Origin: an uncultured Rikenellaceae bacterium
Lineage (GTDB): Bacteria > Bacteroidota > Bacteroidia > Bacteroidales > VadinHA17
Reading direction: 5' to 3'
NCBI GenBank assembly: GCA_964507015.1
Contig: CAZDOM010000007.1
Span: forward strand, 1,812-65,811
Length of the DNA: 64,000 nt
In this document: piece by piece, positions 7,429 through 47,167 of the stretch
How positions within the stretch are numbered: position 1 is the stretch's first letter
Layout: every line of letters starts with the position of its first letter
Translations under genes and position numbers: made by a program
Notes under the pieces: model-generated
The model's input: only the letters and a program-made list of their open reading frames with translations
Databases searched by the model: none
What the model was told of the DNA's origin: nothing

Positions 7429-7449
7429 ACCGGAAAAATTTTAATAATG

Positions 7450-7479
7450 ACCATCCTTTTTCAGGATGGTTATTTTTTT
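7450..7479 (+). terminator. Intrinsic terminator after the ompH pair
   Basis: ACCATCCT-ttttc-AGGATGGT hairpin followed by TATTTTTTT. It lies inside the N-terminal extension the ORF track gives to murI. Confidence 0.75.
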
Positions 7480-7491
7480 ATAACCCATAAA

Positions 7492-8292
7492 GTGAAAGAA
7501 CAGCCCATAGGTATTTTTGATTCCGGAGTAGGAGGTCTTACTGTTGCTCATGCCATTAAACAGATATTACCGGGTGAGAACCTCGTATATTTCGGCGATA
7601 CAGCACACCTCCCTTATGGTGATAAATCAGCTGAAGCAATAAGATATTACTCAGGCAGGATTACTGAATTCCTTTTACAACACAACTCAAAAATTGTACT
7701 TGTTGCCTGTAACTCTGCATCAGCATCAGCATTTGATACTCTGAAGAAAGAATTCAAAGGCCGGACACTTCTTATTGATGTTATTGACCCGGTTGTTGGT
7801 TACCTCGGAACACGGGATTTCAAAAAAATTGGTGTTATAGGAACCAAGAGGACAATCAGTTCAGGTACATATGAATTGAAGATCAGGGAGAAGAAACCTG
7901 ATACAGCTCTGGTGTCACTTGCAACACCTTTACTTGTACCAATGATAGAAGAAGGATTTATTTTTGATGACATCAGTAATGCAATTATACGTACTTACCT
8001 GTCTGATAAATCAATGGAAGGCATTGAAGCTTTAATTCTTGGTTGTACACACTATCCTATAATAAAGAATCAAATAAACAAGTTCTTTAATTTTAACGTT
8101 GAGATTATCGATTCCGGGAAAATTGTTGCAGCATTGCTCAGGGATATTCTCGAAAAGAATGATATGCTTAATACCAGGGGAAAAGTAAGGGACCAGTTTT
8201 ATATCTCTGATTATACTACCTATTTTGAAAAGATTGCAAGGATGTTCTTCGAAAAGAATATAAATCTTGAGAAAGCAGATATCTGGAATTGA
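7492..8292 (+). CDS. murI: Glutamate racemase
   Basis: IGIFDSGVGGLTV, VLVACNSASA and LGCTHYP motifs. GTG at 7492 gives the usual short N-terminus (VKEQPIGIFDSG) and clears the terminator at 7450-7479. Confidence 0.88.
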   Translation: MKEQPIGIFDSGVGGLTVAHAIKQILPGENLVYFGDTAHLPYGDKSAEAIRYYSGRITEFLLQHNSKIVLVACNSASASAFDTLKKEFKGRTLLIDVIDPVVGYLGTRDFKKIGVIGTKRTISSGTYELKIREKKPDTALVSLATPLLVPMIEEGFIFDDISNAIIRTYLSDKSMEGIEALILGCTHYPIIKNQINKFFNFNVEIIDSGKIVAALLRDILEKNDMLNTRGKVRDQFYISDYTTYFEKIARMFFEKNINLEKADIWN

Positions 8293-8432: not shown

Positions 8433-10277
8433 ATGGCCCAAAATACTGGTTCAATTAAAAGAGAAGAGGTTGTCGTTCGTTTTTCCGGTGATTCAGGCGA
8501 TGGCATGCAGCTGACGGGAACACTCTTTTCTGATACTGCTGCTTTATACGGTAATGACCTTTCAACTTTTCCTGATTACCCGGCCGAGATACGTGCTCCT
8601 CAGGGAACAGTAGGGGGAGTATCAGGTTTCCAGGTACATCTCGGACACTCAGAGGTTGAAACACCCGGCGATTATGCTGATGTTCTTGTTGCAATGAATC
8701 CGGCTGCTGTTAAAGCAAATGCCATGTGGCTTAAACAGGGAGGTACAATTATTTATGACAAGGACAATTTCTCAGAAAAAAATATTGAAAAGGCGGGATA
8801 TAAAAGTGATCCCATTGCTGAGGAAAATCTTGAGAGTTACAATGTTATTGCAGCCCCGATTACATCGATGGTGAAGGAAGCACTGAAAGATTTTGGCCTT
8901 GAATCAAAATTGGTACTCCGAACAAAAAATATGTTTGCTCTTGGTATGGTTTACTGGCTTTTCGACAGGAAACTAAAATATACTGAACAGTATTTTGAAA
9001 AGAAATTTCAAAAAAGACCGGAAATAGCTGAAGCAAATAAAGTTACTCTCAGGGCAGGATATTATTATGCAGAAACAATAGAAGCCTTAAATCCTGTTAT
9101 TAAAATAGAACCAGCACAGATAGCAAAAGGAACATACAGGAATATAAGCGGTAATACAGCTACTGCATGGGGTTTTATTGCTGCAGCGGAGAAAGCAGGA
9201 TTAAACCTGTTTATCGGATCCTATCCAATCACTCCGGCTACCGGGATACTTGAAGAACTTGCTGCTCGTAAAGATCTGGGAGTTAAATCATTTCAGGCTG
9301 AGGATGAAATTGCAGGTATCTGTGCTGCACTGGGCGCAAGCTTCGCTGGTAACCTGGCAGTAACATCGACATCAGGTCCTGGTCTTGCACTTAAATCTGA
9401 AGCTATTGGACTGGCTGTTATGGCAGAATTACCGGTAGTTGTGATTAATGTACAAAGAGGAGGTCCCTCAACAGGTCTCCCTACAAAAACCGAACAGGCT
9501 GATCTTATGCAGGCAATCTACGGCAGAAACGGAGAATGCCCGGTTGTGGTTCTTGCAGCGAGCACACCTGCAAATTGTTTCCAATTTGCATATGAAGCTG
9601 CAAGAATTGCCGTTGAACATATGACTCCTGTTCTGCTCCTCACTGATGGTTTCCTGGCAAATGGAACAGAACCATGGAAAATTCCATTGATGAAAGAGCT
9701 TCCGGCTATTAAACCTCCTTTTGCCAGCAAAACGGAAACGCCATTCATCCCTTATAAAAGAAATATCGAAACCCTTGCACGATCATGGGCAATACCTGGT
9801 ACCCCGGGACTGGAACACAGGATTGGAGGACTTGAGAAGACAATTAAGGGAACAGTATCCTATGTGCCCGAGAACCATGAAATGATGGTGAAATTAAGAG
9901 CCGAGAAGGTGGCAAGAGTAGCAGAAGGTATCCCTGATCTTAAAGTATATGGAGAGGAATCAGGCGATCTTCTTGTTGCAGGCTGGGGAGGATCTCGAGG
10001 ATACCTTATGACAGCTGTACGTGAATTGCAGGCTGAAGGCAAAAAGATAAGCATGGTAAATTTTAACTATATCAATCCATTACCGAAAAATGTAAAGGAT
10101 GTCTTCAGGAAATTTAAAAGAATAGTCGTTGCAGAACTCAATATGGGTCAGTTTGCTGATTACCTGAGGATTAAATACCAGGAGTTCAATTATGAGCAGA
10201 TCAATAAGATACAGGGTATTCCATTCACTGTAAAGGAGATCAGGGAATCATGTCTTAAATTACTGGAGGAAAACTAA
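8433..10277 (+). CDS. korA: 2-oxoglutarate/2-oxoacid:ferredoxin oxidoreductase, alpha subunit (gamma-alpha fused)
   Basis: 614 aa. N-terminal gamma-like segment (VVVRFSGDSGDGMQLTG) then alpha domain (ISGNTATAWGFIAAAEKAG, GSYPITPAT). Immediately followed by the TPP-binding beta subunit. Confidence 0.85.
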   Translation: MAQNTGSIKREEVVVRFSGDSGDGMQLTGTLFSDTAALYGNDLSTFPDYPAEIRAPQGTVGGVSGFQVHLGHSEVETPGDYADVLVAMNPAAVKANAMWLKQGGTIIYDKDNFSEKNIEKAGYKSDPIAEENLESYNVIAAPITSMVKEALKDFGLESKLVLRTKNMFALGMVYWLFDRKLKYTEQYFEKKFQKRPEIAEANKVTLRAGYYYAETIEALNPVIKIEPAQIAKGTYRNISGNTATAWGFIAAAEKAGLNLFIGSYPITPATGILEELAARKDLGVKSFQAEDEIAGICAALGASFAGNLAVTSTSGPGLALKSEAIGLAVMAELPVVVINVQRGGPSTGLPTKTEQADLMQAIYGRNGECPVVVLAASTPANCFQFAYEAARIAVEHMTPVLLLTDGFLANGTEPWKIPLMKELPAIKPPFASKTETPFIPYKRNIETLARSWAIPGTPGLEHRIGGLEKTIKGTVSYVPENHEMMVKLRAEKVARVAEGIPDLKVYGEESGDLLVAGWGGSRGYLMTAVRELQAEGKKISMVNFNYINPLPKNVKDVFRKFKRIVVAELNMGQFADYLRIKYQEFNYEQINKIQGIPFTVKEIRESCLKLLEEN

Positions 10278-10278
10278 A

Positions 10279-11301
10279 ATGGCAGAGATACAAACATTCA
10301 AGTATACTCCGAAAGACTTCAAATCGGACCAGGAGGTACGATGGTGCCCTGGATGCGGCGATCATGCTGTTTTAAATGCTGTTCAGAAAGCCCTTTCCGA
10401 ACTTGATATCCCGAAAGAGAAATTTGTCTTTGTATCCGGTATCGGATGTTCGTCCAGGTTCCCCTATTATATGGATACTTATGGTTTTCACGGAATACAT
10501 GGCCGTGCCTCAGCAATTGCTACGGGTGTTAAAACGGCAAATCCCGATTTATCAGTATGGCAGATCACAGGTGATGGCGATGCTCTCGCAATAGGTGGTA
10601 ATCATTTCATTCATGTAGTAAGGAGAAATATTGACATTAATATTATTCTTTTTAATAATGAGATTTATGGCCTCACCAAAGGACAATATTCCCCCACTTC
10701 AAATAAAGGACTGGTAACAAAAACATCCCCATTTGGAACAGTAGAGGAGCCCTTCTCAGTTGGTGAACTTGCCATAGGAGCCAAAGGAAAATTCTTTGCA
10801 CGTACTGTGGATGCAAATGTTGCCCTCTCTATCCAGGTCTATATTGAAGCTGCCCGGCATAAAGGAACTTCCGTCATTGAAGTTCTTCAGAACTGTGTAA
10901 TTTTCAATGATGGTATTCATGATGAAGTAACAGGTAAGGATGTCAGAGACGACAGAACCATTATTCTGCAGCACGGGAAACCAATGATTTTTGGTAAGAA
11001 TAATGATAAAGGACTGGTACTCGATGGTCTTAAACTCAAGGTTGTAAAACTGGGTGAAAATGGTATCACTGAAAAGGACCTTATAGTACATGATGCATAC
11101 GAATCAAATCCGGGAATTCAGTATATGCTTGCAAATATGAGATACCCTGAGTATCCTGTGGCACTGGGGGTGTTAAGGTCGGTACCAGGTCATACATACG
11201 AGAATGATCTGGAGGAACAGATTAAATATGTCCGCCAAGATGCTACAATTAAATCTGTTGATGAACTCCTTGCCAGCGGTTCAACGTGGAATGTGGAATA
11301 A
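10279..11301 (+). CDS. korB: 2-oxoglutarate/2-oxoacid:ferredoxin oxidoreductase, beta (TPP-binding) subunit
   Basis: WCPGCGDH, GIGCSSRF and ITGDGDALAIGGNHFIH motifs. Starts 1 nt after the korA stop. Confidence 0.85.
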   Translation: MAEIQTFKYTPKDFKSDQEVRWCPGCGDHAVLNAVQKALSELDIPKEKFVFVSGIGCSSRFPYYMDTYGFHGIHGRASAIATGVKTANPDLSVWQITGDGDALAIGGNHFIHVVRRNIDINIILFNNEIYGLTKGQYSPTSNKGLVTKTSPFGTVEEPFSVGELAIGAKGKFFARTVDANVALSIQVYIEAARHKGTSVIEVLQNCVIFNDGIHDEVTGKDVRDDRTIILQHGKPMIFGKNNDKGLVLDGLKLKVVKLGENGITEKDLIVHDAYESNPGIQYMLANMRYPEYPVALGVLRSVPGHTYENDLEEQIKYVRQDATIKSVDELLASGSTWNVE

Positions 11302-11363
11302 CAAAAGCCATTCTTAACCAATCCCTGTTTTAATTTTCTTTCATTAACTTTAGATCCTGAATA

Positions 11364-11377
11364 CCTTTTGCAAAAGG
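11364..11377. repeat. Perfect 14-nt palindrome abutting the start codon of the 1147-aa gene
   Basis: CCTTTTGCAAAAGG immediately followed by the ATG at 11378. Confidence 0.6.
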
Positions 11378-14300
11378 ATGAAAGAGAATAACGATATAAG
11401 TCCCGAATATCATAAATTACTTCACGATCAGCAGGAACGCCTGAAGGAGCTGGGCTGTATTAATCAGACTACATATATCCTGAAGGAGGGTAAACCCATC
11501 GAAGAGACCCTGCAGCAAATTGTATTGCTATTACCGGCAGCCTGGCAATATCCCGAGTATACGGCAGCCCGGATTATGTACCTCGGTAAGTCGTTTGAAA
11601 CACCTGATTTCCAGGAGACTTCATGGAGGATGGTTCAGGAATTCACTACAATTGATGATGAAAAGGGTACTATAGAGGTTTTTTACACAAAGGAATTCAC
11701 AATAGAGACAGAAGGTCCTTTTCTTAAAGAAGAGAGAGACCTGATAAGAAACATTGCCAGCCTTATTACAGGGTATATCAACAGTTATAAGGCACGTGAT
11801 TTTATCAGGAGTACCAGCATAGAAAGGGAAGAAGATGAAGACCTGACACATGTATCAAGCAGGAAACTCCTGCAGAAATTCCTCGAGCGGCATAATGCTG
11901 AACGCGATGTCTTCCATGATCTTCAGCCTTTTAAGGTCAAAGAGATACTTTTGGTGGCAAACCTTTATGATGCTTATTCCATTGAGGGTGAGGGTCGTTT
12001 TTCCGATCATATGCTGGGAGAATACTACCAGCTCAGTCTTACATCACTGCCCAGGGTAACCGGTGTTACAGGAGACGAGGAAGCTTTTAATAAGCTGAAA
12101 GCCAGACATTATGATATGGTCATAATTATGGTGGGAATACACAAGGAGAGACCTATGAATCTTTGTAAGAAGATAAAGGATAAGTATCCATACCTTCCAA
12201 CATTCCTGCTTATTAACAAACCGGAAGATATTAATTATGTAAAGCAACAGAAAGCAGCAGGAGTTCCATTCGATAATTATTTTGTATGGACAGGTGAGTC
12301 AAAGGTCTTTTTTGCCATGGTCAAACTCCTGGAAGACATGGTCAATGTAGATAACGATACAAAGAAAGGGCTTACATGGGTAATTCTCCTGATAGAAGAT
12401 TCATCAGAATATTATTCAAGCTATCTTCCAATGCTCTATACACTTGTTCTTGAGCAGACAAGAAATCTTATAGCAGATGTCTCAACAGATGAACTGTATA
12501 AAGTACTGAGACTCAGGGCAAGACCAAAGATACTTTTAGCCTCCAGCTGGGAAGATGCAATAAATATATATAATAATTACAAGGAGAGTCTTCTGTGTGT
12601 AATCTCTGATATAAGGTTTCCTAAAAACGGGGAATTACATGAAACAGCAGGCTATGACCTGATAAAACTTATTAAGAAAGAACTTCCAAACCTGCCGTCG
12701 GTACTCCAGTCATCCGATCCTGAAAATGCAAAATATGCCTTCGACCTCAAAGCAAGTTTTATTAATAAGAACTCTGAAAGCCTTTTACAGGACCTTAAAT
12801 CATTTATAACTTATTATCTCGGGTTTGGCCATTTTGTTTACAGGGATAATTCAGGCCGTCAGATTGCTGTGGCAAAGTCGATGAAAGAGTTTGAAGCATA
12901 TCTTGAGACTATTCCTGAAGATTCACTGGCTTACCATGCAATGAAAAACCATTTCTCCCTTTGGTTAATGGCCAGGGGAGAAGTTAAAATAGCCAAACTT
13001 ATTAACCCGATAAAAGTCACAGATTTTTCAAGTCTTAAAGAGCTGAGGAAATTTCTTCTTGAGATTATTCGCAAAAGGCGCAGGGAAACAAATAAAGGAC
13101 GTGTGATAAATTTCGAGGAGTCAGCAATAATTGACGAGACAAACGTGGTTAGTCTTTCGGTGGGGTCACTTGGAGGTAAGGGGAGAGGACTTGCTTTCAT
13201 CAATACATTAATTTACAGTTTTGAACTGGGAAAACTACTCCCCGGGATTAATATAAAGGCACCTGTAACAGCAATTATCGGCACTGATGAGTTTGATATG
13301 TTTATGGAACGCAATCATCTGTGGGATAAGGTAAAGACTGAAAGTGATTTTTCGATACTTCAACCTATGTTTCTTGAAGGGAGCCTGAGCTATACTCTGG
13401 ATAAACAGCTAAGGGTTCTTCTTAAACAAACAGATAAACCGCTTGCAGTACGTTCTTCCAGTCTTTTTGAAGATTCAATGAGCCAACCCTTCTCGGGAAT
13501 ATTCGGTACTTATATTCTGCCTAATAACCATCCCGATTTCGAAGTAAGGTTACGGCAGTTGTCTGAAGCAATAAAACTTGTTTTTTCTTCTATTTATTCC
13601 AGAAATGCACGTAACTATTTTGAAGCTATCAATTATAAGATAGAACAGGAAAAAATGGCTGTTGTGCTTCAGGAAGTTGTTGGCCACAGGTATGAAGATG
13701 TTTATTACCCGCATATAAGCGGAACAGCACAATCCTATAATTTCTATCCGGTTGCACATATGACGCCACAGGATGGTTTTGCAGTGATGGCTGTTGGATT
13801 AGGACACTATGTAGTTGAAGGTGAAAAGGCATTCCGGTTCTCACCTGCATATCCGGCTCTCGATATAATATCTCAGAATGACCTCTATAAGAATTCTCAG
13901 GTCTATTTTTATGCCGTTGACCTTAATAAAAAAGACCTTAACCTTCTTGAAGGAGAAAATGCAGGTCTTATTACCCTGGATATAGGTGAAGCTGAAAAAC
14001 ATGGTACTTTAAGCCATTCCGCATCAGTGCTTAATTCCGATAATGATACTATTATTCCGGGACTCGATACACCCGGCCCCAGGGTAGTAAATTTTGCCAA
14101 TATACTGAAATACAATTATATACCACTTTCCTCAACAATCCGGACTATCCTCGATGTTGTTACTGAAGCAACAGGTAATCCTTCTGAGATCGAATTTGCA
14201 TTGGACCTTACCATGGATAGTAATGGCAATGCATCGTTTTACCTGCTTCAAATAAAACCGCTTGTAGGCTCAGGTGCAGGATACAACATTGACCCTGAAT

Positions 14301-14821
14301 CTATTAATGATGATGACCTTATACTTACATCGTCAAAGAGTATGGGTAATGGGTTAATTGACGATATTTCGGATATTGTATTCTTTGACCCTGAAAAATT
14401 TGATAATCTGAAGACTATTGAGATGGCAGAGGAGATAGACAATATAAATGAGAAAATGTTGAAGGAGGGAACGCGTTATATACTCATAGGGCCTGGTCGT
14501 TGGGGTTCAAAAGATAAATTCATCGGTATACCTGTTGTATGGTCACAGATATCTAATGCAAAAGTGATAGTGGAAATAGGCCTCCCGGATTTTCATATAG
14601 ATGCTTCCCTGGGATCCCACTTTTTTCATAATGTTACGTCAATGAATGTAGGCTACTTTTCTATCGACCAGGCGTCAAATGACGGAACCATAAACTGGCA
14701 AAAACTTAGAAAACAAAAGATCATCAGTAAACATAAGTTCTTCAGACATGTAAAATTTGGAAAACCGGTCCTGGTGAGGATGGATGGTAAAAAACGAATA
14801 GCAGTAATTACAACCAGTTAG
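11378..14821 (+). CDS. Multidomain protein of unknown substrate: N-terminal sensory-like module, degenerate receiver, receiver-like domain, PPDK_N ATP-grasp domain, conserved C-terminal module
   Basis: 1147 aa. GSLGGKGRGLAFIN and PLAVRSSSLFEDSMSQPFSGIFGTY match the nucleotide-binding domain of PEP synthase/PPDK. ILLIEDS...VISDIRFP...VLQSS...FINK resembles a CheY-like receiver. C-terminus has ILIGPGRWGS...GIPVVWSQIS...GSHFFHNVTS. No TSHAA-type swivel motif seen. Confidence 0.8.
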   Translation: MKENNDISPEYHKLLHDQQERLKELGCINQTTYILKEGKPIEETLQQIVLLLPAAWQYPEYTAARIMYLGKSFETPDFQETSWRMVQEFTTIDDEKGTIEVFYTKEFTIETEGPFLKEERDLIRNIASLITGYINSYKARDFIRSTSIEREEDEDLTHVSSRKLLQKFLERHNAERDVFHDLQPFKVKEILLVANLYDAYSIEGEGRFSDHMLGEYYQLSLTSLPRVTGVTGDEEAFNKLKARHYDMVIIMVGIHKERPMNLCKKIKDKYPYLPTFLLINKPEDINYVKQQKAAGVPFDNYFVWTGESKVFFAMVKLLEDMVNVDNDTKKGLTWVILLIEDSSEYYSSYLPMLYTLVLEQTRNLIADVSTDELYKVLRLRARPKILLASSWEDAINIYNNYKESLLCVISDIRFPKNGELHETAGYDLIKLIKKELPNLPSVLQSSDPENAKYAFDLKASFINKNSESLLQDLKSFITYYLGFGHFVYRDNSGRQIAVAKSMKEFEAYLETIPEDSLAYHAMKNHFSLWLMARGEVKIAKLINPIKVTDFSSLKELRKFLLEIIRKRRRETNKGRVINFEESAIIDETNVVSLSVGSLGGKGRGLAFINTLIYSFELGKLLPGINIKAPVTAIIGTDEFDMFMERNHLWDKVKTESDFSILQPMFLEGSLSYTLDKQLRVLLKQTDKPLAVRSSSLFEDSMSQPFSGIFGTYILPNNHPDFEVRLRQLSEAIKLVFSSIYSRNARNYFEAINYKIEQEKMAVVLQEVVGHRYEDVYYPHISGTAQSYNFYPVAHMTPQDGFAVMAVGLGHYVVEGEKAFRFSPAYPALDIISQNDLYKNSQVYFYAVDLNKKDLNLLEGENAGLITLDIGEAEKHGTLSHSASVLNSDNDTIIPGLDTPGPRVVNFANILKYNYIPLSSTIRTILDVVTEATGNPSEIEFALDLTMDSNGNASFYLLQIKPLVGSGAGYNIDPESINDDDLILTSSKSMGNGLIDDISDIVFFDPEKFDNLKTIEMAEEIDNINEKMLKEGTRYILIGPGRWGSKDKFIGIPVVWSQISNAKVIVEIGLPDFHIDASLGSHFFHNVTSMNVGYFSIDQASNDGTINWQKLRKQKIISKHKFFRHVKFGKPVLVRMDGKKRIAVITTS

Positions 14822-14836
14822 TAAATATGTTGCTTT

Positions 14837-17809
14837 ATGACAATAATCGACGGTATCCTCGATCTTCAAAAATATGATTTCACTGATACCTCCTTCAATT
14901 TGCTGATGCAGAGGAGAATCCATAAGGTGCTTATAATCTGCAGTAACTATGATAATTACATGCTTGAGGAGGATGGAAGAATTGATGAGCGGATTTTTAA
15001 TGAATATGTATCACTTAACCTCAGGTATCCTCCATCTTTTATACAGACCAACAATGTCGACGATGCCTTTAAAATATTGAAAACAGGGGATATTGACCTT
15101 GTGATTTCAATGGTCAGCCTTAAAGGAACAGATGTTTTTTTTCTTGCTAAAAAAAGCAAGGAGCAATATCCGAATATCCCTATTGTTGTACTAACCTATT
15201 TTTCACGGGAGGTCTCAATGAGGCTGGAAGGAGAAGATCTCAGTGCTATTGACTATGTATTCTCCTGGTTAGGGGATTCCTCTCTTATACTGGCAATTAT
15301 TAAGCTGATCGAGGATAAGATGAATGCTGAACATGATATTGAACAGATTGGAGTCCAGTCTATTATACTCGTTGAGAATTCAATAAGATATATTTCGTCT
15401 TATCTCCCGAATATTTACAGGATAGTATTGATGCAATCGCTTGACTTTCAGCGCGAAGCACTTAATGAGCACCAGCGGATGCTTAAAATGAGAGGAAGAC
15501 CCAAGATTTTGCTTGCAACCAACTTCGAAGATGCAGTTAACATGTATAATAAATATAAATACAATGTTCTTGGTGTTATTTCCGACATAAGCTATAAAAG
15601 GAACGGGATGCCGGATGAGAATGCCGGTCTTGAGTTATGCAAAGTAGTAATGGCTGATGACGATAAGGTTCCCTTCCTTCTTCAGTCTTCAAATATCAAC
15701 CATAAGAGAAATGCCGAAGAACTTGGTGCAGGGTTTATCCATAAATATTCAAAGTCACTGGCCCTCGAACTGCGTAATTTTATAATTCAAAACCTTGCAT
15801 TTGGACCTTTTGTTTTCAGAAATCCGGATACACTCGAACCTATTGCAATTGCTACTGACCTGCAGAGTCTCCAGCAGAAGATACTTACCGTTCCCGATAA
15901 TACACTCGAATATCATGCATCGAGGAATCATTTTTCCAAATGGTTGAATGCCAGAGCTTTGTTCCCTGTGGCGCAAATGTTTAAGTATCTGCGGAGAGAG
16001 GATTTCGACAGTATGGATGAGATGAGGAGATTTCTCTATATCGCCATTTCGAGTTTCCGCCTGGGCAAGGGACGGGGAGTTATAGCTAAATTCGACAAGG
16101 CTACATTTGATGAATACCAGATATTTTCGAGGATAGGAGAAGGATCAATAGGGGGTAAAGCAAGGGGCCTTGCTTTCATCAACAGGATGATCAAGGAAAA
16201 TAAGCTTTTCAATAAGTTTCCCGAGGTCCTCATTACTATTCCCAAGACTGTAGTTCTGAGTACCGACATTTTTGAAGAGTTCATGGATCATAATAATCTC
16301 TATTCTGTTGCTCTTTCCGATATTTCTGATGACGAGATGCTCAACAGGTTTATAAATGCTGAATTACCTGGTCGTGTTTATCAGGACTTCTATGCATTCC
16401 TGGAAGTATCTACGAGCCATCCCATTGCTGTTCGCTCATCGAGTAAACTGGAAGACTCACAATATCAGCCTTTTGCAGGAGTATATTCAACATACATGAT
16501 ACCCAGGCTTGCAGATAACAAGGGTATGGTAAAGATGCTCTCCGATGCAATAAAAGAGGTTTATGCATCAGTTTACTATAAAGCAAGCAAAGCATATATG
16601 ATGGCAACATCAAATGTTATTGATGAGGAGAGAATGGGTATAGTACTCCAGGAGATTTGCGGTAACAGGCATGGGAGTAATTTTTATCCGACAATTTCTG
16701 GTGTTGCACAATCAATAAACTACTATCCTGTAGGTTCTGAAAAGGCCGAAGATGGTATAGCTCATGTTGCGTTCGGACTAGGTAAACTTATTGTTGAGGG
16801 AGGTATATCGCTGCGTTTTTGTCCCAGGGTGCCAAAGAAGATCCTGCAACTTTCATCCCCGGAAACAGCACTTAGAGATACACAGAAAGAATTCCGGGCA
16901 CTTGATCTCAATGTTGACAGATTTGTCCCATCTGTTGATGACGGGGTAAATATCCCGGCAATCGACATTAAAGACGCAAATAATGAAGGGGCGATGAAGC
17001 TTGTAGCTTCGACATATGATTACGAAAATAACATGCTTCATGATGGAATAATACGTCCGGGTAAGAGAGTAATTACTTTTTCCGGTGTTCTGCAGCACGG
17101 TTCCTTCCCCCTGGCCGAAATACTTACGACTCTTCTTGACCTGGGCCAGAAGGAGATGAATAATCCTATAGAGATAGAATTTGCAGCCAATCTGGAGACA
17201 CCACCGGGAACACCGAAAATCTTTAATTTCTTGCAAATAAGACCAATAGTTGATTCCGACGAGACCTATAGCATTAATCTTGATAATATCAGGGCAGAAG
17301 ATACTATTATCTTTTCTGATTCCGCCCTTGGACATGGTATTTTCAAAGGGATACATGATTTTGTGTATGTTAAGCCGGAGACATTTAGTTCAACAATGAA
17401 TAAGACTCTTGCTGATATAGTTGAAACCCTTAATAACGGATTTATCAGAGAGTCAAAGGGTTATGTGCTGGTAGGTCCGGGCCGATGGGGATCACAAGAT
17501 CCCTGGCTTGGGATACCTGTTAAGTGGTCACAGATATCAGCTGCCAGGATCATTATTGAATCAGGATTGGAGAATTACCGTATTGATCCAAGCCAGGGAA
17601 CTCATTTTTTCCAGAATCTCACTTCATTCAGGGTAGGTTATTTCACCCTCAATCCATATATCAATGAAGGTTTTTATGATGTTGATTATCTTAATAAACA
17701 AAACGTGGTTTATGAGGATGATTATGTCAGACATGTACATTTTGAAAAACCTCTTGAAATTATCATTGACGGTAAAAAGCATAAAGGTGCTATAATGAAA
17801 TCCGTATAA
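14837..17809 (+). CDS. Paralogue of the preceding gene: degenerate receiver, receiver-like domain, PPDK_N ATP-grasp domain, conserved C-terminal module; lacks the N-terminal sensory module
   Basis: 990 aa, 15 nt after the upstream paralogue. GSIGGKARGLAFIN, PIAVRSSSKLEDSQYQPFAGVYSTY, IILVENS...VISDISY...LLQSS...FIHK, VLVGPGRWGS...GIPVKWSQIS...GTHFFQNLTS. Confidence 0.8.
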   Translation: MTIIDGILDLQKYDFTDTSFNLLMQRRIHKVLIICSNYDNYMLEEDGRIDERIFNEYVSLNLRYPPSFIQTNNVDDAFKILKTGDIDLVISMVSLKGTDVFFLAKKSKEQYPNIPIVVLTYFSREVSMRLEGEDLSAIDYVFSWLGDSSLILAIIKLIEDKMNAEHDIEQIGVQSIILVENSIRYISSYLPNIYRIVLMQSLDFQREALNEHQRMLKMRGRPKILLATNFEDAVNMYNKYKYNVLGVISDISYKRNGMPDENAGLELCKVVMADDDKVPFLLQSSNINHKRNAEELGAGFIHKYSKSLALELRNFIIQNLAFGPFVFRNPDTLEPIAIATDLQSLQQKILTVPDNTLEYHASRNHFSKWLNARALFPVAQMFKYLRREDFDSMDEMRRFLYIAISSFRLGKGRGVIAKFDKATFDEYQIFSRIGEGSIGGKARGLAFINRMIKENKLFNKFPEVLITIPKTVVLSTDIFEEFMDHNNLYSVALSDISDDEMLNRFINAELPGRVYQDFYAFLEVSTSHPIAVRSSSKLEDSQYQPFAGVYSTYMIPRLADNKGMVKMLSDAIKEVYASVYYKASKAYMMATSNVIDEERMGIVLQEICGNRHGSNFYPTISGVAQSINYYPVGSEKAEDGIAHVAFGLGKLIVEGGISLRFCPRVPKKILQLSSPETALRDTQKEFRALDLNVDRFVPSVDDGVNIPAIDIKDANNEGAMKLVASTYDYENNMLHDGIIRPGKRVITFSGVLQHGSFPLAEILTTLLDLGQKEMNNPIEIEFAANLETPPGTPKIFNFLQIRPIVDSDETYSINLDNIRAEDTIIFSDSALGHGIFKGIHDFVYVKPETFSSTMNKTLADIVETLNNGFIRESKGYVLVGPGRWGSQDPWLGIPVKWSQISAARIIIESGLENYRIDPSQGTHFFQNLTSFRVGYFTLNPYINEGFYDVDYLNKQNVVYEDDYVRHVHFEKPLEIIIDGKKHKGAIMKSV

Positions 17810-32054: not shown

Positions 32055-34211
32055 ATGGATACGGTTTTACAGAAAGCTCAACACAAAATACTTAAAGAGT
32101 GGAAATATATCTGGACTCCTTTAGATAAAGGTTATACCGACAAGGTCCTGTATATAAATGTAGGTACTAATGATATCAGGGGAAAAGATGTTCCCCTGGA
32201 GATGAAGGAAAAATTCATCGGGGGGAAAGGATACGGACTAAGGCTCTTATGGGATGGTACAAAGCCTGATACGAAATGGAATAGTCCTGATAATGAGATT
32301 GTTATATCTTCGGGGCCTATTGGTGGAATAACCCAGTATTCCGGATCAGGTAAATCGTTGGTAGTCAGTATTTCTCCTCAGACAGACTCTGTGATGGACA
32401 GTAATGTAGGAGGTTTTTTCGGACCCTTTCTGAAGTTTTCAGGATTTGATGCAATTGAATTACAGGGTAAAGCCCAAAAGGATGTAATTGTATTTATTGA
32501 CGGAATAAATCATAAAGTAGAGGTTTATGAAGCTAATGATGAAGAGGCAACTGACAGCCACATACTTGTTGAGCAGCTTACCGATTATTTTGCTGTTGAT
32601 GAAAAGGATAAAAAGAATATTGGAGTAGTCTCATCCGGTTCTGCTGCGAAACATTCACTGATTGGGATGCTTAATTTCAGCTTTTATGATCCCAAGCGTA
32701 AGAAGGTAAGGGTGAAACAGGCTGGAAGGGGAGGAATAGGTACAGTATTCCGGGACAAGAATATACGAGCTCTTGTCTGTAAGATACCCGGAGTAAAGGG
32801 CAATCTTAATAATGTTGTTGATCTTGACGCAATTATGGAGCGTGGCAGACGGTTTAACAAAGAGATGAGAGAACTTGACGACAAACAATGCCAGATGCGC
32901 CAGGTTGGAACAGCTCACCTGATGGAGATAATGAACGATCATGATCTGTTGCCGGTAAATAACTATAAGTATGGAAGTCATCCCGATGCTTACAAAATCG
33001 ATTCATCGATATGGAAGAAACACTTTACGCAGAACATTCCTGATGGTTGCTGGATAGGTTGTAATATGTCGTGTACCAAGGGGGTGGACGATTATGAGAT
33101 AAGGACCGGACCCTATAAAGGGAATAAGGTAATAGTAGATGGTCCTGAATATGAGAATGCAGCCGGTTTAGGTTCAAATTGCGGAATATTCGATTCTCAT
33201 TATATTATTGAGAGCAATTTTTACTGTGACACATACGGAATTTGTACGATTACCTGGAGTACCGTCACAGCTTTCATTATGGAATGTTATGAGAATGGAA
33301 TACTTAACAAGGAAAGAACCGGAGGGTTGGAACTTAATTTCGGTAATGCGGATGCGGCCCTTGAAATGATACATCAGCTGGCACGCGGTGAAGGTTTCGG
33401 GAAAATTGCCGGACTTGGTGTGCGGCATGCAAAGGAGCTTTTTATTAAAAACGAATGGGGAGATGCTGATTTCCTGAACGATATCGGTATGGAAAACAAA
33501 GGGCTTGAATATTCCCAATATATATCAAAAGAATCACTTGCTCAGCAGGGAGGTTTTGCCATGACAAACAAAGGTCCTCAGCATGATGAAGCATGGCTCA
33601 TTTTTATGGATATGGTAAACAACCAGATACCTACCTTTGAGAATAAGGCTGAGGCGTTGCACTATTTTCCAATGTTCAGAACATGGTTCGGGCTGGTTGG
33701 ATTGTGCAAGCTGCCATGGAATGATATTGAGCCTGAGAATAATGCAGAGACTGATGAGCCCGCAAAAGTACCGGAGCATGTCGATAATTATGTTACTATA
33801 TATAAGGCAGTTACAGGCCGTGAGTTCGATAAGCACAGACTCATTGAGGATTCAGAAAGAGTTTACAACTTCCAGCGAATATTTAACCTGCGGAGGGGAT
33901 ACGGCACACGGATACATGACAAACAACCATATCGTGCCGCAGGCCCCGTTACGAAAGAGGAGTATGAATCAAGAGCCGAAAGGTATGATAACCAAATTAT
34001 GGAAAAGTTAAATATTGATCCTTCAGGGAAATCAACAGAGGAAAAAATGAAGATCCTCAGAAAATACAGGGAAAATCAGTATGAAGCTCTTGTTGATGCT
34101 GTCTATAAGAGAAGAGGATGGAACAAAAACGGGGTTCCCACTATTGAGTTCCTGAAAAAAATAGGAATGGATCTTCCGGAAGTAATTGAGGTTGTTAAGG
34201 AGTATCAATAG
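32055..34211 (+). CDS. Aldehyde:ferredoxin oxidoreductase family protein (tungsto/molybdopterin, long form)
   Basis: 718 aa; GGKGYGLRLL N-terminal block, Cys cluster DGCWIGCNMSCTK, CDTYGICTITWSTVTAFIMECYENGIL, and late FGLVGLCKLPW block typical of AOR-family enzymes. Confidence 0.85.
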   Translation: MDTVLQKAQHKILKEWKYIWTPLDKGYTDKVLYINVGTNDIRGKDVPLEMKEKFIGGKGYGLRLLWDGTKPDTKWNSPDNEIVISSGPIGGITQYSGSGKSLVVSISPQTDSVMDSNVGGFFGPFLKFSGFDAIELQGKAQKDVIVFIDGINHKVEVYEANDEEATDSHILVEQLTDYFAVDEKDKKNIGVVSSGSAAKHSLIGMLNFSFYDPKRKKVRVKQAGRGGIGTVFRDKNIRALVCKIPGVKGNLNNVVDLDAIMERGRRFNKEMRELDDKQCQMRQVGTAHLMEIMNDHDLLPVNNYKYGSHPDAYKIDSSIWKKHFTQNIPDGCWIGCNMSCTKGVDDYEIRTGPYKGNKVIVDGPEYENAAGLGSNCGIFDSHYIIESNFYCDTYGICTITWSTVTAFIMECYENGILNKERTGGLELNFGNADAALEMIHQLARGEGFGKIAGLGVRHAKELFIKNEWGDADFLNDIGMENKGLEYSQYISKESLAQQGGFAMTNKGPQHDEAWLIFMDMVNNQIPTFENKAEALHYFPMFRTWFGLVGLCKLPWNDIEPENNAETDEPAKVPEHVDNYVTIYKAVTGREFDKHRLIEDSERVYNFQRIFNLRRGYGTRIHDKQPYRAAGPVTKEEYESRAERYDNQIMEKLNIDPSGKSTEEKMKILRKYRENQYEALVDAVYKRRGWNKNGVPTIEFLKKIGMDLPEVIEVVKEYQ

Positions 34212-37394: not shown

Positions 37395-38747
37395 ATGTCC
37401 GGAACAATAAGTTTAAAAAAGGGATATAATATCCCATTAAAAGGTAAAGCTGAAAAAAAGATAGCCGGAGAGTGCAATCCGATAAGGTTTGGAGTTAAAC
37501 CTGTCGATTTTCCCGGGCTCATTCCAAAAATGGAGGTAAAACCGGGAGAAAAGATAAAAGCCGGGACACCCTTGTTTCATGATAAAAACCGGCCGGCGAT
37601 AAAATTCACCTCCCCGGTAAGTGGTACTGTCATATCAGTGGAAAGGGGAGAAAGACGGAGGATCCTTGAAGTTGTTATTGAAAAAAGCGGAAATGCTTAT
37701 GTCAATTTCGGGAAGAATGACCCTGCATCATTATCACGGGGAAAGATAATAGAAAAGCTTCTTTTATCAGGACTCTGGCCGGCTGTACGACAACGTCCAT
37801 ATCATGTTATTGCTAATCCGGAAGATAATCCGAAATCGATTTTCATAGCTGGATTTGATACTTCTCCTCTGGCACCGGATTATGATTTCATAATGGATAA
37901 TCTTCCTGCAGAGATTTTTCAGACAGGTATCTCGGCAATCTCAAAACTCACAGGAGGAAAAGTAAATCTGGTGCTGGAAAAGAAAGCTTCAAAAACACCC
38001 GGAAAATACAATTTCAATGGTGTTGAGGTCTCTTATTTCTCCGGACCACATCCTGCAGGGAATGTAGGCATTCATATTCATCATCTTGACCCTGTCAATA
38101 AAGGTGAGGCTGTATGGTTTGTTAATTTCCAGGATGTTATAGCTATCGGGAATCTGTTCGCGGAAGGGATCTATAAACCTGAAAGAGTGATTGCCCTGAC
38201 AGGGTCAGAGGTATCTAATCCACAGTATTACAAAGGATTATCAGGGTGTTCAATAGCACCAATCATCAGGGATAATATCATGTCGTGGAATCTTAGATAT
38301 ATAAGCGGCAATGTATTGACAGGAACAAAAATAAACGCTGACGGGTATCTTGGTTACTACGATTCACAGGTAACAGTAATACCTGAAGGAGATAAATATG
38401 AATTCTTTGGATGGGTACTGCCCGGAGCTGATAAGCTTAGTTTCTCAAGAACATTTTTATCAAGCTTCATCCCGAAAAAAAGTTTCAGCCCCGACACAAA
38501 CTTTCATGGTGGTAAAAGAGCTTTTGTATTAACCGGGCAGTATGAAAAAGTACTTCCTATGGATATATATCCCATGCATCTGCTTAAAGCAATTATTTCA
38601 GGTGATATTGACCTGATGGAAAACCTGGGTATTTATGAGGTTGCTGAAGAGGATTTTGCCCTCTGTGAGTTTATCTGCCCGTCGAAAATTGAGATACAGT
38701 CTATAATTAGGAATGGTCTGGATTTGATGATAAAGGAAATGAGTTAA
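37395..38747 (+). CDS. nqrA: Na+-translocating NADH:quinone oxidoreductase subunit A
   Basis: 450 aa; ISLKKGYNIPLKG N-terminus; first gene of a complete nqrABCDEF series. Confidence 0.9.
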   Translation: MSGTISLKKGYNIPLKGKAEKKIAGECNPIRFGVKPVDFPGLIPKMEVKPGEKIKAGTPLFHDKNRPAIKFTSPVSGTVISVERGERRRILEVVIEKSGNAYVNFGKNDPASLSRGKIIEKLLLSGLWPAVRQRPYHVIANPEDNPKSIFIAGFDTSPLAPDYDFIMDNLPAEIFQTGISAISKLTGGKVNLVLEKKASKTPGKYNFNGVEVSYFSGPHPAGNVGIHIHHLDPVNKGEAVWFVNFQDVIAIGNLFAEGIYKPERVIALTGSEVSNPQYYKGLSGCSIAPIIRDNIMSWNLRYISGNVLTGTKINADGYLGYYDSQVTVIPEGDKYEFFGWVLPGADKLSFSRTFLSSFIPKKSFSPDTNFHGGKRAFVLTGQYEKVLPMDIYPMHLLKAIISGDIDLMENLGIYEVAEEDFALCEFICPSKIEIQSIIRNGLDLMIKEMS

Positions 38748-44731: not shown

Positions 44732-47167
44732 GTGAACATAAAACAACCAGTTTTTATGGTACAAAACAAAAAAAAATCAGATATAAAAATTAACAGGGAG
44801 ATCATCCTGGCTGACTATCGTCTTGCCAATGTCAGCAGGAACCTGTCAATTACAGGTCGACGTGAAGTATTATCAGGAAAAGCAAAATTCGGAATTTTTG
44901 GGGATGGGAAGGAACTGATACAGATAGCCATGGCCAGGCAATTCAGGGACGGAGACTGGAGATCAGGTTATTACAGAGACCAGACCTGGATGATGGCAAT
45001 GGGACTCTATGATTCAGTAGAATTCTTTCATCAGCTTTATGGTAATACTGACAGAAACATTAATCCGGGTAGCGGAGGACGGGTATTCAATAATCATTTT
45101 TCGGTTCCTAATATAAATCCCGATGGTACCTGGCGTGATCTGACAAAACAAAAAAATTCATCTTCAGACATATCTCCTACAGCCGGACAGATGCCCCGCC
45201 TTCTTGGTCTGGCCTATGCATCAAAATTATTCCGGTCGAATAAAGAACTGCATCAGTATAAGACATTATCGCTGAAAGGCAACGAAGTGGCATTTGGCTC
45301 AATAGGTGATGCCAGTACTTCAGAGGGCCACTTCTGGGAAACAATGAATGCAGCAGGTGTTTTGCAGGTGCCTATGGCTATATCTGTATACGATGATGGT
45401 TATGGTATCTCGGTTCCAAAGAAATACCAGACAACAAAAGGGAGTATTTCTGATATCATGAAAGGGTTTGAAAAAGAATCTGGTCGACCGGGGATACTTA
45501 TCTACAAAGGCAAAGGATGGGATTATCAGGGACTTATTAAAATGTATGAAGAAGGGATCGCGATTTGCAGAAGGGATCATGTTCCTGTATTATTCCATAT
45601 CGAGGAGGTGACACAGCCCCTTGGTCACTCTACATCAGGATCACATGAAAGATATAAAAGTGAGGAGAGGTTGAAATGGGAGGAAGAATTTGATCCGATA
45701 AGAAAAATGAGAAAATGGATCATCAGTCAAAATATTGCGAACGCTGAAGAACTTGACAAAATAGAGTCTGAAACCGGAGAGGAAGTAAGGGAATCAAAGA
45801 AAAAAAGCTGGAAGATGTTCCAGGACCCTATAAAGATTGAAAGGGATGCATTGGTGAAAATTATAAGGGACAGATCCTGCAAATGTCATGAAGAGATAAA
45901 GGAAGCTTCGGTGGATGAAATAACAGCAGAGCTGGAAAAGGTACTGACCCCGATCCGTAAGGATAACTTCATGGCTGCACGTAAGATTCTCAGGAATGTA
46001 TGTGAATCATGTAACAAAGCAGATAACCTCAGAGAGGAGCTTCACGGATGGCTTAAAAGAAACTATGCCGATGCCTCAATGAGCTATGACAAGTTCCTTT
46101 ATAATGAGACATCAACATCTGTTCTTAATGTTAAACCTGTTGCGCCGAAATACTCGGAAAGTTCTCCCGAAGTGCCCGGAAGACAGGTTCTCCGTGAGAA
46201 CTATGACAAACTCTTTTCGAAATATCCTCTCCTGGTTACTTTTGGTGAGGATACCGGTAAAATTGGTGGAGTAAACCAGTCACTGGAAGGTTTACAGAAG
46301 AAATATGGCGAATTGAGAATTACAGATACCGGGATCAGGGAAACCACGATACTGGGTCAGGGGATAGGTCTTTCGCTGAGAGGTATGAGACCTATTGCCG
46401 AGATACAATATCTCGATTATCTTATGTATGCCATCCAGACCTTAAGTGATGATCTCGCAACAACTCATTACCGGACAGCAGGCAGGATGGTTGCACCCCT
46501 TATTGTATCAACCCGTGGACACAGACTTGAAGGAATCTGGCATTCCGGATCACCTATGAGTATGCTTATTAACTCTGTAAGAGGAGTCTATGTTTGTGCC
46601 CCAAGAGATATGACCCGGGCTGCAGGATTTTATAATACTCTCCTTCAGGGAAATGATCCTGCAATTGTAATAGAACCCTTGAATGGTTATCGACTTAAGG
46701 AGAAACTTCCGGATAACATCGGTGAATTTTGTATCAGGCTTGGAGTTCCTGAGATCCTTACCAGCGGTACCGATCTGACACTGGTAACATATGGATCAAC
46801 TGTCAGGATAGCCGCAGAAGCAGTTAAACAGCTTTCATCACATGGAATATCAGTTGAGCTTATCGATGTGCAGACACTTGTTCCGTTTGATATCGGGAAG
46901 ATCATACTTGATTCAATAAGGAAAACCAACAGAATACTCTTTCTCGATGAAGATGTTCCTGGAGGTACCACTGCATATATGATGCAGGAAGTGCTTGAGA
47001 AACAGGGTGGATGGCAATATCTCGATTCACAACCAAAAACACTTACTGCCAAAGAGCATCGTCCGGCATACACTACTGATGGAGATTATTTCTCAAAACC
47101 AAGTGCCGAGGATGTTTTCGATGCAGTATATGCTATGATGAAGGAAGCAATACCGGCAAAGTATTAG
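44732..47167 (+). CDS. TPP-dependent 2-oxoacid dehydrogenase E1 component, fused alpha/beta subunits
   Basis: 811 aa. Alpha-like half (FGSIGDASTSEGHFWETMNAAG...YDDGYGIS), beta-like half (ITDTGIRETTILGQGIGLS, EIQYLDY, transketolase-C-like end). GTG start; an ATG 24 nt downstream is an alternative. Confidence 0.8.
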   Translation: MNIKQPVFMVQNKKKSDIKINREIILADYRLANVSRNLSITGRREVLSGKAKFGIFGDGKELIQIAMARQFRDGDWRSGYYRDQTWMMAMGLYDSVEFFHQLYGNTDRNINPGSGGRVFNNHFSVPNINPDGTWRDLTKQKNSSSDISPTAGQMPRLLGLAYASKLFRSNKELHQYKTLSLKGNEVAFGSIGDASTSEGHFWETMNAAGVLQVPMAISVYDDGYGISVPKKYQTTKGSISDIMKGFEKESGRPGILIYKGKGWDYQGLIKMYEEGIAICRRDHVPVLFHIEEVTQPLGHSTSGSHERYKSEERLKWEEEFDPIRKMRKWIISQNIANAEELDKIESETGEEVRESKKKSWKMFQDPIKIERDALVKIIRDRSCKCHEEIKEASVDEITAELEKVLTPIRKDNFMAARKILRNVCESCNKADNLREELHGWLKRNYADASMSYDKFLYNETSTSVLNVKPVAPKYSESSPEVPGRQVLRENYDKLFSKYPLLVTFGEDTGKIGGVNQSLEGLQKKYGELRITDTGIRETTILGQGIGLSLRGMRPIAEIQYLDYLMYAIQTLSDDLATTHYRTAGRMVAPLIVSTRGHRLEGIWHSGSPMSMLINSVRGVYVCAPRDMTRAAGFYNTLLQGNDPAIVIEPLNGYRLKEKLPDNIGEFCIRLGVPEILTSGTDLTLVTYGSTVRIAAEAVKQLSSHGISVELIDVQTLVPFDIGKIILDSIRKTNRILFLDEDVPGGTTAYMMQEVLEKQGGWQYLDSQPKTLTAKEHRPAYTTDGDYFSKPSAEDVFDAVYAMMKEAIPAKY

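Follow-up and report, generated by a model that had tools for sequence, protein, structure and literature searches.

Several described enzymes are built around the PPDK_N type of ATP-grasp domain: phosphoenolpyruvate (PEP) synthase (PpsA), PPDK, rifampin phosphotransferase (RPH; PDB 5hv3) and the prodigiosin ligases PigC/RedH, the last two having PPDK_N without a PEP barrel and a small His domain at the C-terminal end. Here we analyse two adjacent genes, P1 and P2, that encode large proteins of this general kind in a 64,000-nucleotide stretch of DNA from an uncultured Rikenellaceae bacterium (GenBank assembly GCA_964507015.1, contig CAZDOM010000007.1, positions 1,812 to 65,811 of the forward strand), hereafter the window. 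With PpsA and PPDK the two proteins share the ATP-grasp domain and its GGK, RSSxxED, ExE and Q..R ligands, as well as a small domain immediately after it in which a conserved His starts a helix. Unlike those enzymes, they have no swivel detectable with PF00391 and no PEP/pyruvate TIM barrel, they carry two receivers and a linker before the ATP-grasp, and the genomic partner of their family is glutamate dehydrogenase (GDH), not gluconeogenesis genes. RPH and PigC/RedH resemble them in ending with a small His domain, but in RPH and PigC a large substrate-binding domain occupies the centre and the swivel is a canonical PEP_mobile domain, whereas the P1/P2 family has neither and has signalling domains fused instead. 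By analogy, the first half-reaction of P1 and P2 would be like that of PpsA, PPDK and RPH.

The N-terminal halves recall PleD-type response regulators, in which a tandem REC-like pair, one competent and one degenerate, likewise precedes an enzyme domain; in P1 and P2 the pseudo-receiver comes first, opposite to the PleD arrangement, and the output is an ATP-grasp rather than a GGDEF domain. Two nitrogen-control systems are also relevant. In EI-Ntr (PtsP), which serves nitrogen signalling, a GAF sensor at the N terminus is fused to a phospho-His swivel enzyme, and the nucleotidyltransferases GlnE and GlnD act as covalent switches of nitrogen-assimilation proteins; the latter offer a functional analogy to a sister family of P1/P2 that carries an NTP_transf_2 domain. 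Homology to PtsP and to GlnE/GlnD is limited to general domain classes, however; in the P1/P2 family the phosphodonor would be ATP and not PEP, and the target is a predicted one.

P1 and P2 combine two known kinds of protein, response regulators whose output domain is an enzyme and ATP-grasp phosphotransferases of the PPDK type. Our preferred reading, to which we assign a probability of roughly 40%, is that they form an uncharacterised, signal-gated phosphotransfer module that would act on the glutamate/2-oxoglutarate node. An initial annotation, made from the letters of the stretch alone, was right about the architecture, about the distinction from PpsA and about an uncharacterised chemistry, but it was probably wrong in denying the proteins a His domain, and it misplaced weight on the neighbouring korAB genes. 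The family-wide linkage to GDH and the definition of a conserved core go beyond it.

Tandem ATP-grasp proteins distinct from PEP synthase

By their alignment, P1 and P2 are true full-length paralogues in tandem: residues 169–1147 of P1 match residues 10–989 of P2 at 36% identity and 59% similarity over 985 aa with 11 gaps (BLASTP, E = 0), and the ~170 extra residues at the N terminus of P1 are without counterpart in P2. Both open reading frames (ORFs) lie where the initial annotation had placed them, on one strand and 15 nt apart, and every motif block that it quoted was found (Table 1). A search of the 64-kb window for a third copy found none. An AF2 model of P2 based on 48 diverse relatives (pLDDT 88.1, pTM 0.82) resolved five units: a pseudo-receiver (residues 28–171), a receiver (173–320), an alpha/beta linker (321–436), the ATP-grasp (437–810) and a C-terminal alpha/beta domain (811–990). 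This model replaced an earlier run on a shallow alignment of orthologues at 82–90% identity, in which pLDDT was 63 and the ATP-grasp was unfolded. A Foldseek comparison with the PDB, which had been suggested along with the initial annotation, gave RPH as the best match of the model by way of the ATP-grasp (5hv3, E 2e-11), followed by PleD-type REC–REC pairs (E about 1e-7).

Pfam places PPDK_N (PF01326) centrally in both proteins, as had been proposed from their motifs. Conservation was scored in a set of 152 sequences, made up of P1, P2 and 150 cluster representatives (clustering at 50% identity) that are 32–57% identical to P2; all residue counts use P2 numbering, with the sequences aligned at that position as the denominator. 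Near-invariant within the ATP-grasp are K441 (149/150), R533 (152/152), E781 (146/147) and Q800 (145/146), which we take to be the PPDK ATP/Mg ligand positions, and the ATP-site ligands of both P1 and P2 are intact.

The earlier proposals that these are not ordinary PpsA or PPDK and that the PEP-utiliser TIM barrel is absent are both borne out. At E≤1, neither whole protein gave a match to PEP_mobile (PF00391) or PEP-utilizers_C (PF02896), and both end about 180 aa past the ATP-grasp, with no room taken by a TIM barrel domain. The NCBIfam equivalogs for PpsA, PigC, RedH and RPH aligned with only the first part of the ATP-grasp, at 9.9–54 bits against cut-offs of 598–1300 (best score 54 against 883; RPH 9.9–19.5 against 999; PigC 38–46 against 1300). 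A substrate-binding domain of the RPH/PigC type is not present between the ATP-grasp and the C-terminal domain, which adjoin directly in both the Pfam matches and the AF2 model. Of the three domains that define the PpsA/PPDK family, P1 and P2 have PPDK_N and are without the other two. Close relatives of P2 nevertheless bear public source names such as 'phosphoenolpyruvate synthase', 'PEP/pyruvate-binding domain-containing protein', 'response regulator' and 'CheY-like'. The family is pervasively misannotated as 'phosphoenolpyruvate synthase' in databases, and this distorts metabolic reconstructions of metagenome-assembled genomes (MAGs) from Bacteroidota, Acidobacteriota, Ignavibacteriota, Planctomycetota and other groups.

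A C-terminal domain with a near-invariant histidine

The region after the ATP-grasp is a family-specific domain of ~185 aa (C-domain) in which R883 (142/143), E908 (140/142), S919 (138/142), G921 (142/144) and H923 of the motif G[ST]HFF (139/144) are near-invariant. In the P2 model its elements run in the order hairpin, helix, strand, strand, His helix, strand, helix and last hairpin, with H923 at the N terminus of helix 922–930, between two strands. This is presumably also the order of elements in the swivel domains of PpsA, PPDK and RPH, and from the modelled topology, the position right behind the ATP-grasp and the IDGxxxxGxI end we lean, by a little, towards the C-domain being a divergent phospho-His swivel. 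The initial annotation had found no such swivel; it was correct in that PEP_mobile does not match, but it missed this conserved domain with its near-invariant His and swivel-like topology, and the claim is probably too strong. Pfam searches with 28 isolated C-domains at E≤10 returned no match.

Receivers and other N-terminal modules

Two (beta-alpha)5 units in the secondary structure of the P2 model and the REC and PleD matches from Foldseek agree with a REC fold for both N-terminal domains of P2. The first receiver had been called degenerate, and a Met does occupy the acceptor position (M251 in P1, M92 in P2); in a profile alignment to FleR, LVISMVSL of P2 stands opposite LVISDVNM, that is, Met for the acceptor Asp. 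The second had been described as intact, which is right for the Asp (end of beta3), Ser (beta4) and Lys (beta5) of both proteins but only partly so for the acidic pair at the metal site (end of beta1), which is E-D in P1 and E-N in P2 and all its close orthologues (ILVENS; window 15374–15379). Family-wide the receiver pocket is kept: D250, whose loss from most orthologues would by the initial annotation have counted against its reading, is present in 130/141 aligned representatives (92%), K303 in 140/144 and S/T284 in 139/146, and the second acidic position is Asp in 118/136 family members. Response_reg matches exceed the Pfam cut-off in P2 (34 bits) and stay below it in P1 (23 bits).

The linker between receiver and ATP-grasp marginally matches DUF5752 (PF19027) in P1 at 24.6 bits against a gathering threshold of 23, does not match it in P2, and scores 17–25 bits in several relatives. 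The N-terminal domain of P1, which the initial annotation had passed over, has no match in Pfam. It shares 35% identity (E 2e-26) with the N terminus of the receiver-less sister family described below, and its sole structural hint is a non-significant match (E 0.36) to Nlh2 chain 4g3v, which we take to be a GAF domain; a search with the 175-aa domain returned short fragments only and no new architectures. The claim that no histidine kinase adjoins the pair also holds, the only one (HisKA plus HATPase_c) among the window ORFs scanned being encoded at 57146–58906 on the minus strand, ~40 kb from P1/P2.

A large family with a modular core

A word-index search with P2 gave >8000 hits, of which the top 120 are 81–100% identical and come from Bacteroidales MAGs. 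Exhaustive searching of 50%-identity representatives gave 5026 hits at E≤1e-3, of which 1174 reach E≤1e-30; the full architecture (about 990 aa) is found in about 110 of the best 150 representatives listed, many of them equidistant from P1 and P2. Among the matches listed in species-representative genomes, relatives occur in Eisenbacteria, Myxococcota, Acidobacteriota, Fibrobacterota, Gemmatimonadota, Ignavibacteria, Zixibacteria and Calditrichia, and further in Planctomycetota, Desulfobacterales, Bdellovibrionota, Spirochaetes, Clostridia, Actinomycetota and Chromatiales. The family is large and, judging from these matches, is spread across more than a dozen phyla. A literature search found no published characterisation of any member, a finding that the initial annotation had said would count against its reading had it gone the other way.

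Several GDH arrays also encode a sister protein (1063–1064 aa) that is 27% identical to residues 429–947 of P2 and consists of a P1-type N-domain, PPDK_N, the same C-domain (GPGRWGS ... GTHFFQ) and an extra NTP_transf_2 domain. This sister family has 431 relatives in species genomes, with GDH in 63/80 loci. The usual arrangement is a three-gene run (for example L283:4862–11195, among loci L250–L329) of a ~420-aa GDH, whose best NCBIfam match is an archaeal GdhA model, below cut-off; a 583-aa minimal protein that is ATP-grasp and C-domain alone, without the linker and with every core motif kept; and the sister protein. Such runs were found in Phycisphaerae, Ignavibacteria, Zixibacteria, Aminicenantes, Calditrichia and others. 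We had also considered a Pol-beta nucleotidyltransferase fold for the C-domain, from the likeness of GPGRWGS..D to hG[GS]..DxD; it was rejected, as the true NTP_transf_2 of the sister protein lies at 962–1011, after the shared region, which ends near 870.

The motifs GGK, RSSxxED, ExEF, LQxR, GxGRWG[ST], [ST]HFF and a terminal DGxxxxG all occur in P1, P2 and the 583-aa minimal form, and most of them in the sister protein. From these motifs we define a GDH-linked superfamily, 'ATP-grasp plus GPGRWGS/G[ST]HFF C-domain'. Its N-terminal modules vary (REC–REC; N-domain plus REC–REC; N-domain alone; none), which argues that signals enter through these modules and that the core delivers the output. 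The ATP-grasp/C-domain core appears to be the conserved functional unit, with receivers or sensor domains as interchangeable inputs, and receivers, which the initial annotation treated as a fixed feature, are not obligatory for the core, as receiver-less versions are found. Tandem pairs of differing core proteins recur (P1 with P2; the minimal core with the sister protein), which suggests hetero-oligomers. One metagenome protein from ENA (P0371, 1639 aa) contains two PPDK_N stretches, a core and, behind it, a further unit that includes a core; the protein may be a natural fusion of tandem paralogues, which would support a heteromer, or an artefact of assembly or frameshift.

Glutamate dehydrogenase is the family-wide genomic partner

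Across phylum-diverse loci, the sole widely recurrent neighbour is a ~450-aa protein (53/80), an ELFV dehydrogenase that matches the NCBIfam equivalog for NADP-specific glutamate dehydrogenase, NF006929, at 751 bits against a cut-off of 536. GDH lies within 500 nt of the family gene in 43/77 such loci and on the same strand in 36, with a median gap of 111 nt and 58 adjacent pairs. With one or two copies of the gene per genome, such adjacency goes far beyond what chance would give. Some loci (L093, L109, L123, L138 and L140) hold alternating GDH–family–GDH–family arrays. At mid-distance from P2 within Bacteroidales (57–66% identity), GDH is present in 16/79 loci, P1–P2 tandems included, and loci L162 and L163 have the order GDH(-) P1(+) P2(+) GDH(+).

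Another arrangement is seen in eight of the mid-distance Bacteroidales loci (L178:120–12985; L198, L201, L204, L216, L229, L231 and L238), where orthologues of P1 and P2 lie ~6 kb apart and bracket a four-gene cluster. Its products are a NuoE-like and a NuoF-like protein, a 1238-aa fusion with 2Fe-2S, GltD-like and NuoG/FdhA-like modules, and a rubrerythrin, which together resemble a flavin-based NAD(P)H/ferredoxin oxidoreductase. In a Bacteroidota relative (L245:6288–10961), a stand-alone NTP_transf_2 protein (282 aa) and a Metallophos protein (287 aa) are encoded directly upstream and overlap the start of the family gene; the former recalls the NTP_transf_2 domain that is fused to the core in the sister protein. 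Copies in Muribaculaceae lie by an AraC-type gene, and one relative by an amino-acid ABC transporter.

A recurrent ~473-aa ORF rich in Ala, Arg and His was observed near GDH in high-GC genomes (loci L081–L160, for example L138:13097–14518) and looks like a spurious call of the simple ORF caller. We also followed a lead that the 'trans-acting gene(s) downstream of gdhA' of B. thetaiotaomicron might be a family member; the neighbours of gdhA, which we take to be BT1970, are a malic enzyme (BT1969) and a catalase (BT1971) and did not support it.

A proposed mechanism and its alternatives

In our preferred reading, the receiver Asp (D411 in P1, D250 in P2) would take a phosphoryl group from a small phosphodonor or from a kinase encoded elsewhere, and the core would thereby be released, to which a ligand bound by the N-domain of P1 may add. 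As in PpsA, PPDK and RPH, the ATP-grasp would use ATP to phosphorylate the C-domain His (P1 H1081, P2 H923), and the His would hand the phosphoryl group on to an acceptor of the glutamate/2-oxoglutarate node, GDH or a partner protein being the likeliest. Cells would in this way balance ammonium assimilation against glutamate catabolism in response to signals. P1 and P2 would probably form a hetero-oligomer, and in this lineage the pair would have moved beside a korAB-type 2-oxoacid:ferredoxin oxidoreductase. Bacteroides-type anaerobes obtain 2-oxoglutarate by reductive carboxylation of succinyl-CoA, and the korAB-type enzyme is presumably the one that makes it in Bacteroidales. The three Bacteroidales contexts, namely korAB-type, GltD/NuoEF-type NAD(P)H–ferredoxin oxidoreductase and NADP-GDH, would fit one theme, in which 2-oxoglutarate and NADPH are supplied and used for ammonium assimilation.

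A stronger version, which we hold to be unlikely, is that the core is a new type of protein-modifying enzyme, a dikinase-style protein kinase (in the sister family combined with a nucleotidyltransferase) that would switch GDH covalently in response to two-component or metabolite signals. If true, it would be the GDH counterpart of the control of glutamine synthetase by GlnE/GlnD, in more than a dozen phyla. GDH is one of two entry points of ammonium into biomass and also the exit for glutamate carbon. To our knowledge, little is known about post-translational control of GDH in most bacteria outside the actinobacterial GarA/OdhI system, and we know of no explanation for the older reports that Bacteroides GDH is reversibly inactivated in vivo. 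With its near-invariant ATP-site ligands, conserved His, signalling inputs and genomic ties to GDH, 2-oxoglutarate synthesis and NAD(P)H/ferredoxin oxidoreductases, the family is a concrete and testable candidate for such control.

A number of observations weigh against the phosphotransfer module as we propose it. A PDB profile search with the C-domain gave no significant match to a solved structure, and hhalign comparisons with PpsA and with a six-sequence swivel alignment from PDB hits gave a probability of ≤1%. The weak hhalign alignment matches the swivel His with R883 and not H923, and two such weak alignments conflict over the residue opposite that His; with Pfam, the PDB profile search and both hhalign comparisons all non-significant, the idea of a swivel proven by sequence was dropped. 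The E-N in place of the acidic pair may make the P2 receiver poorly phosphorylatable, and no linked histidine kinase was seen in any neighbourhood examined. The GDH linkage is absent from the 64-kb window, from the 80 closest loci (0/80) and from Muribaculaceae, so that GDH as a partner of P1 and P2 themselves is suggested by homology. Adjacency, moreover, cannot tell an action of the family on GDH from co-regulation in a shared pathway.

Other explanations were weighed against the same evidence. Public annotation would make P1 and P2 an ordinary PEP synthase, PPDK or rifampin-type phosphotransferase, in line with the source names, the PPDK_N match and the Foldseek match to RPH; with PEP_mobile and PEP-utilizers_C missing, equivalog scores low and confined to the ATP-grasp, no rifampin-binding domain and two receivers before the ATP-grasp, this is hardly credible, and the Pfam and NCBIfam results effectively refute it. 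A small but real chance goes to a small-molecule dikinase, whose core would phosphorylate a metabolite of the glutamate/2-oxoglutarate/NAD(P)H node while the receiver tunes flux, the adjacency to GDH reflecting a shared pathway. The nearest NCBIfam models are PpsA, PigC and RedH, the conserved linker motif YHAxxNHFSxWL with its invariant W369 could form a ligand pocket, and we count in its favour that all characterised PPDK_N enzymes of which we are aware (PpsA, PPDK, RPH, PigC and GWD) act on small molecules or glucans. However, the proteins have neither a PEP-utilizers_C barrel nor a substrate domain of the RPH/PigC type, the 583-aa minimal form dispenses with the linker, and duplication of the GDH–family pair better suits partner-specific protein recognition.

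The ATP-grasp and His module might instead stand in for a histidine kinase, phosphorylating the receiver Asp of the same protein or of its paralogue in a self-contained phosphorelay, with a phosphorylation-dependent protein–protein interaction, for example with GDH, as output. This would account for the lack of a linked histidine kinase in the neighbourhoods examined, for the joint conservation of the intact ATP site, His and receiver Asp and for the absence of a separate substrate domain. Core-only and receiver-less forms are common, however, and also GDH-linked, so the receiver is not an obligatory acceptor; an N-terminal receiver occupies the usual input position; and we know of no precedent for transfer from a swivel His to a receiver Asp. 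We hold the relay to be improbable. Quite improbable, too, is a non-catalytic sensor or scaffold that would read energy charge through bound ATP or AMP and control its partners allosterically, without phosphotransfer. The acceptor chemistry is a prediction and the Pfam, PDB profile and hhalign comparisons assign the C-domain to no known catalytic fold, as such a sensor would have it, but in more than a dozen phyla the Mg/phosphate ligands (E781, Q800, R802, K441 and R533) and the His hardly vary, whereas pure binding modules usually relax such residues.

Genomic context of the window

Table 1 Features of P1, P2 and the adjacent korAB genes (window coordinates).
Feature	Coordinates	Strand	Details
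korA, 2-oxoacid:acceptor (ferredoxin) oxidoreductase alpha	8433..10277	+	Pfam POR, POR_N, PFOR_II; NCBIfam OAFO_sf 657 bits vs cut-off 483
korB, 2-oxoacid:ferredoxin oxidoreductase beta	10279..11301	+	Pfam TPP_enzyme_C; NCBIfam beta-subunit models under cut-offs
korB–P1 spacer	11302..11377	+	76 nt; no terminator-like site in scan
P1	11378..14821	+	1147 aa; N-domain, pseudo-receiver, receiver, linker, ATP-grasp, C-domain; syntenic orthologues 65–83% identity
P1 N-terminal sensor-like domain, possibly GAF-like	11378..11797	+	aa 1–140; motif EGPFLKEERxLI
P1 pseudo-receiver	11936..12367	+	aa about 187–330; M251 at acceptor position; Response_reg match 226–292, 23 bits (below cut-off)
P1 receiver	12371..12817	+	aa about 332–480; E340-D341, D411 (12608–12610), S445, K464
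P1 linker alpha/beta domain	12818..13165	+	aa 481–596; DUF5752 at 499–573, weak
P1 PPDK_N ATP-grasp	13166..14266	+	aa 597–963; Pfam E 2.7e-31; K601, R692, E939, Q958
P1 C-terminal family-specific domain	14267..14818	+	aa 964–1147; GPGRWGS (R1041), E1066, GSHFF (H1081 at 14618–14620)
P1–P2 spacer	14822..14836	+	15 nt
P2	14837..17809	+	990 aa; pseudo-receiver, receiver, linker, ATP-grasp, C-domain; orthologues 77–90% identity
P2 pseudo-receiver	14918..15349	+	aa 28–171; M92 (15110–15112) replaces acceptor Asp; Response_reg 34 bits (above cut-off)
P2 receiver	15353..15796	+	aa 173–320; E180-N181, D250 (15584–15586), S284, K303; long alpha1 insertion
P2 linker domain	15797..16144	+	aa 321–436; motif YHAxxNHFSxWLxAR, invariant W369
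P2 PPDK_N ATP-grasp	16145..17266	+	aa 437–810; Pfam E 2.3e-33; GGK441, R533-S-S, E539-D540, E779/E781, Q800, R802
P2 C-terminal domain, candidate divergent phospho-His swivel	17267..17806	+	aa 811–990; GPGRWGS (R883), E908, S919, G921, H923 (17603–17605), end IDGxxxxGxI hairpin

In the window the pair follows korAB (Table 1), for which 'kor' is a putative label, as specificity of korA for 2-oxoglutarate was not reached at the NCBIfam equivalog level. The initial annotation gave this linkage much weight. It is not limited to this genome: korA and/or korB lie upstream in 72/80 of the closest Bacteroidales loci (P2 77–90% identical); all 80 are syntenic, in the order bamA, ompH, ompH, murI, korA, korB, P1, P2, with fabD, folE and PTPS on the other strand. 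Because the whole region is syntenic within one clade, however, the link is weak functional evidence. Elsewhere korAB is near a family gene in 2/79 mid-distance Bacteroidales loci and 1/80 phylum-diverse loci, and none was seen near the 80 sister-family loci; it is not a property of the family, and korAB as the conserved partner was rejected beyond this one clade.

Co-transcription with korAB had been suggested from the 76-nt gap and the lack of a visible terminator. The gap is real and the terminator scan was empty; a sigma-70 promoter scan of the window is uninformative for Bacteroidota. Some relatives (L022, L037, L041, L061 and L066) have an insert of about 3 kb between korB and P1, which in L037 contains opposite-strand ORFs of 317, 385 and 158 aa, and with such opposite-strand genes in between, co-transcription of korAB and P1 is not obligatory.

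The tandem duplication is conserved within the clade and recurs outside it, although it is dispensable. P1 lies upstream of P2 in nearly all of the closest loci with enough upstream sequence and is missing in 5/80 (L019, L039, L040, L050 and L070), where korB is followed directly by P2. A second family gene is present in 18/79 mid-distance Bacteroidales, 11/80 phylum-diverse and 53/80 sister-family loci. In two loci, L029 (P1 6931–9996, P2 10225–13188) and L032 (P1 7846–10011, P2 11300–14263), P1 seems truncated or an extra 0.2–1.3 kb precedes P2, which may reflect an insertion or an assembly problem.

Rfam (gathering thresholds) and tRNA scans of the whole window gave no matches. Directly upstream of korA, at 7447–8292, is a gene for glutamate racemase, another user of glutamate, which scores 207 bits with TIGR00067 (cut-off 147); its placement is probably coincidental, since it is part of the conserved bamA–ompH–ompH–murI envelope block. 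Further along, the window encodes an aldehyde:ferredoxin oxidoreductase (32055–34211), NqrA at the start of an Nqr cluster (37395–38747) and a fused E1 alpha/beta component of a 2-oxoacid dehydrogenase (44732–47167).

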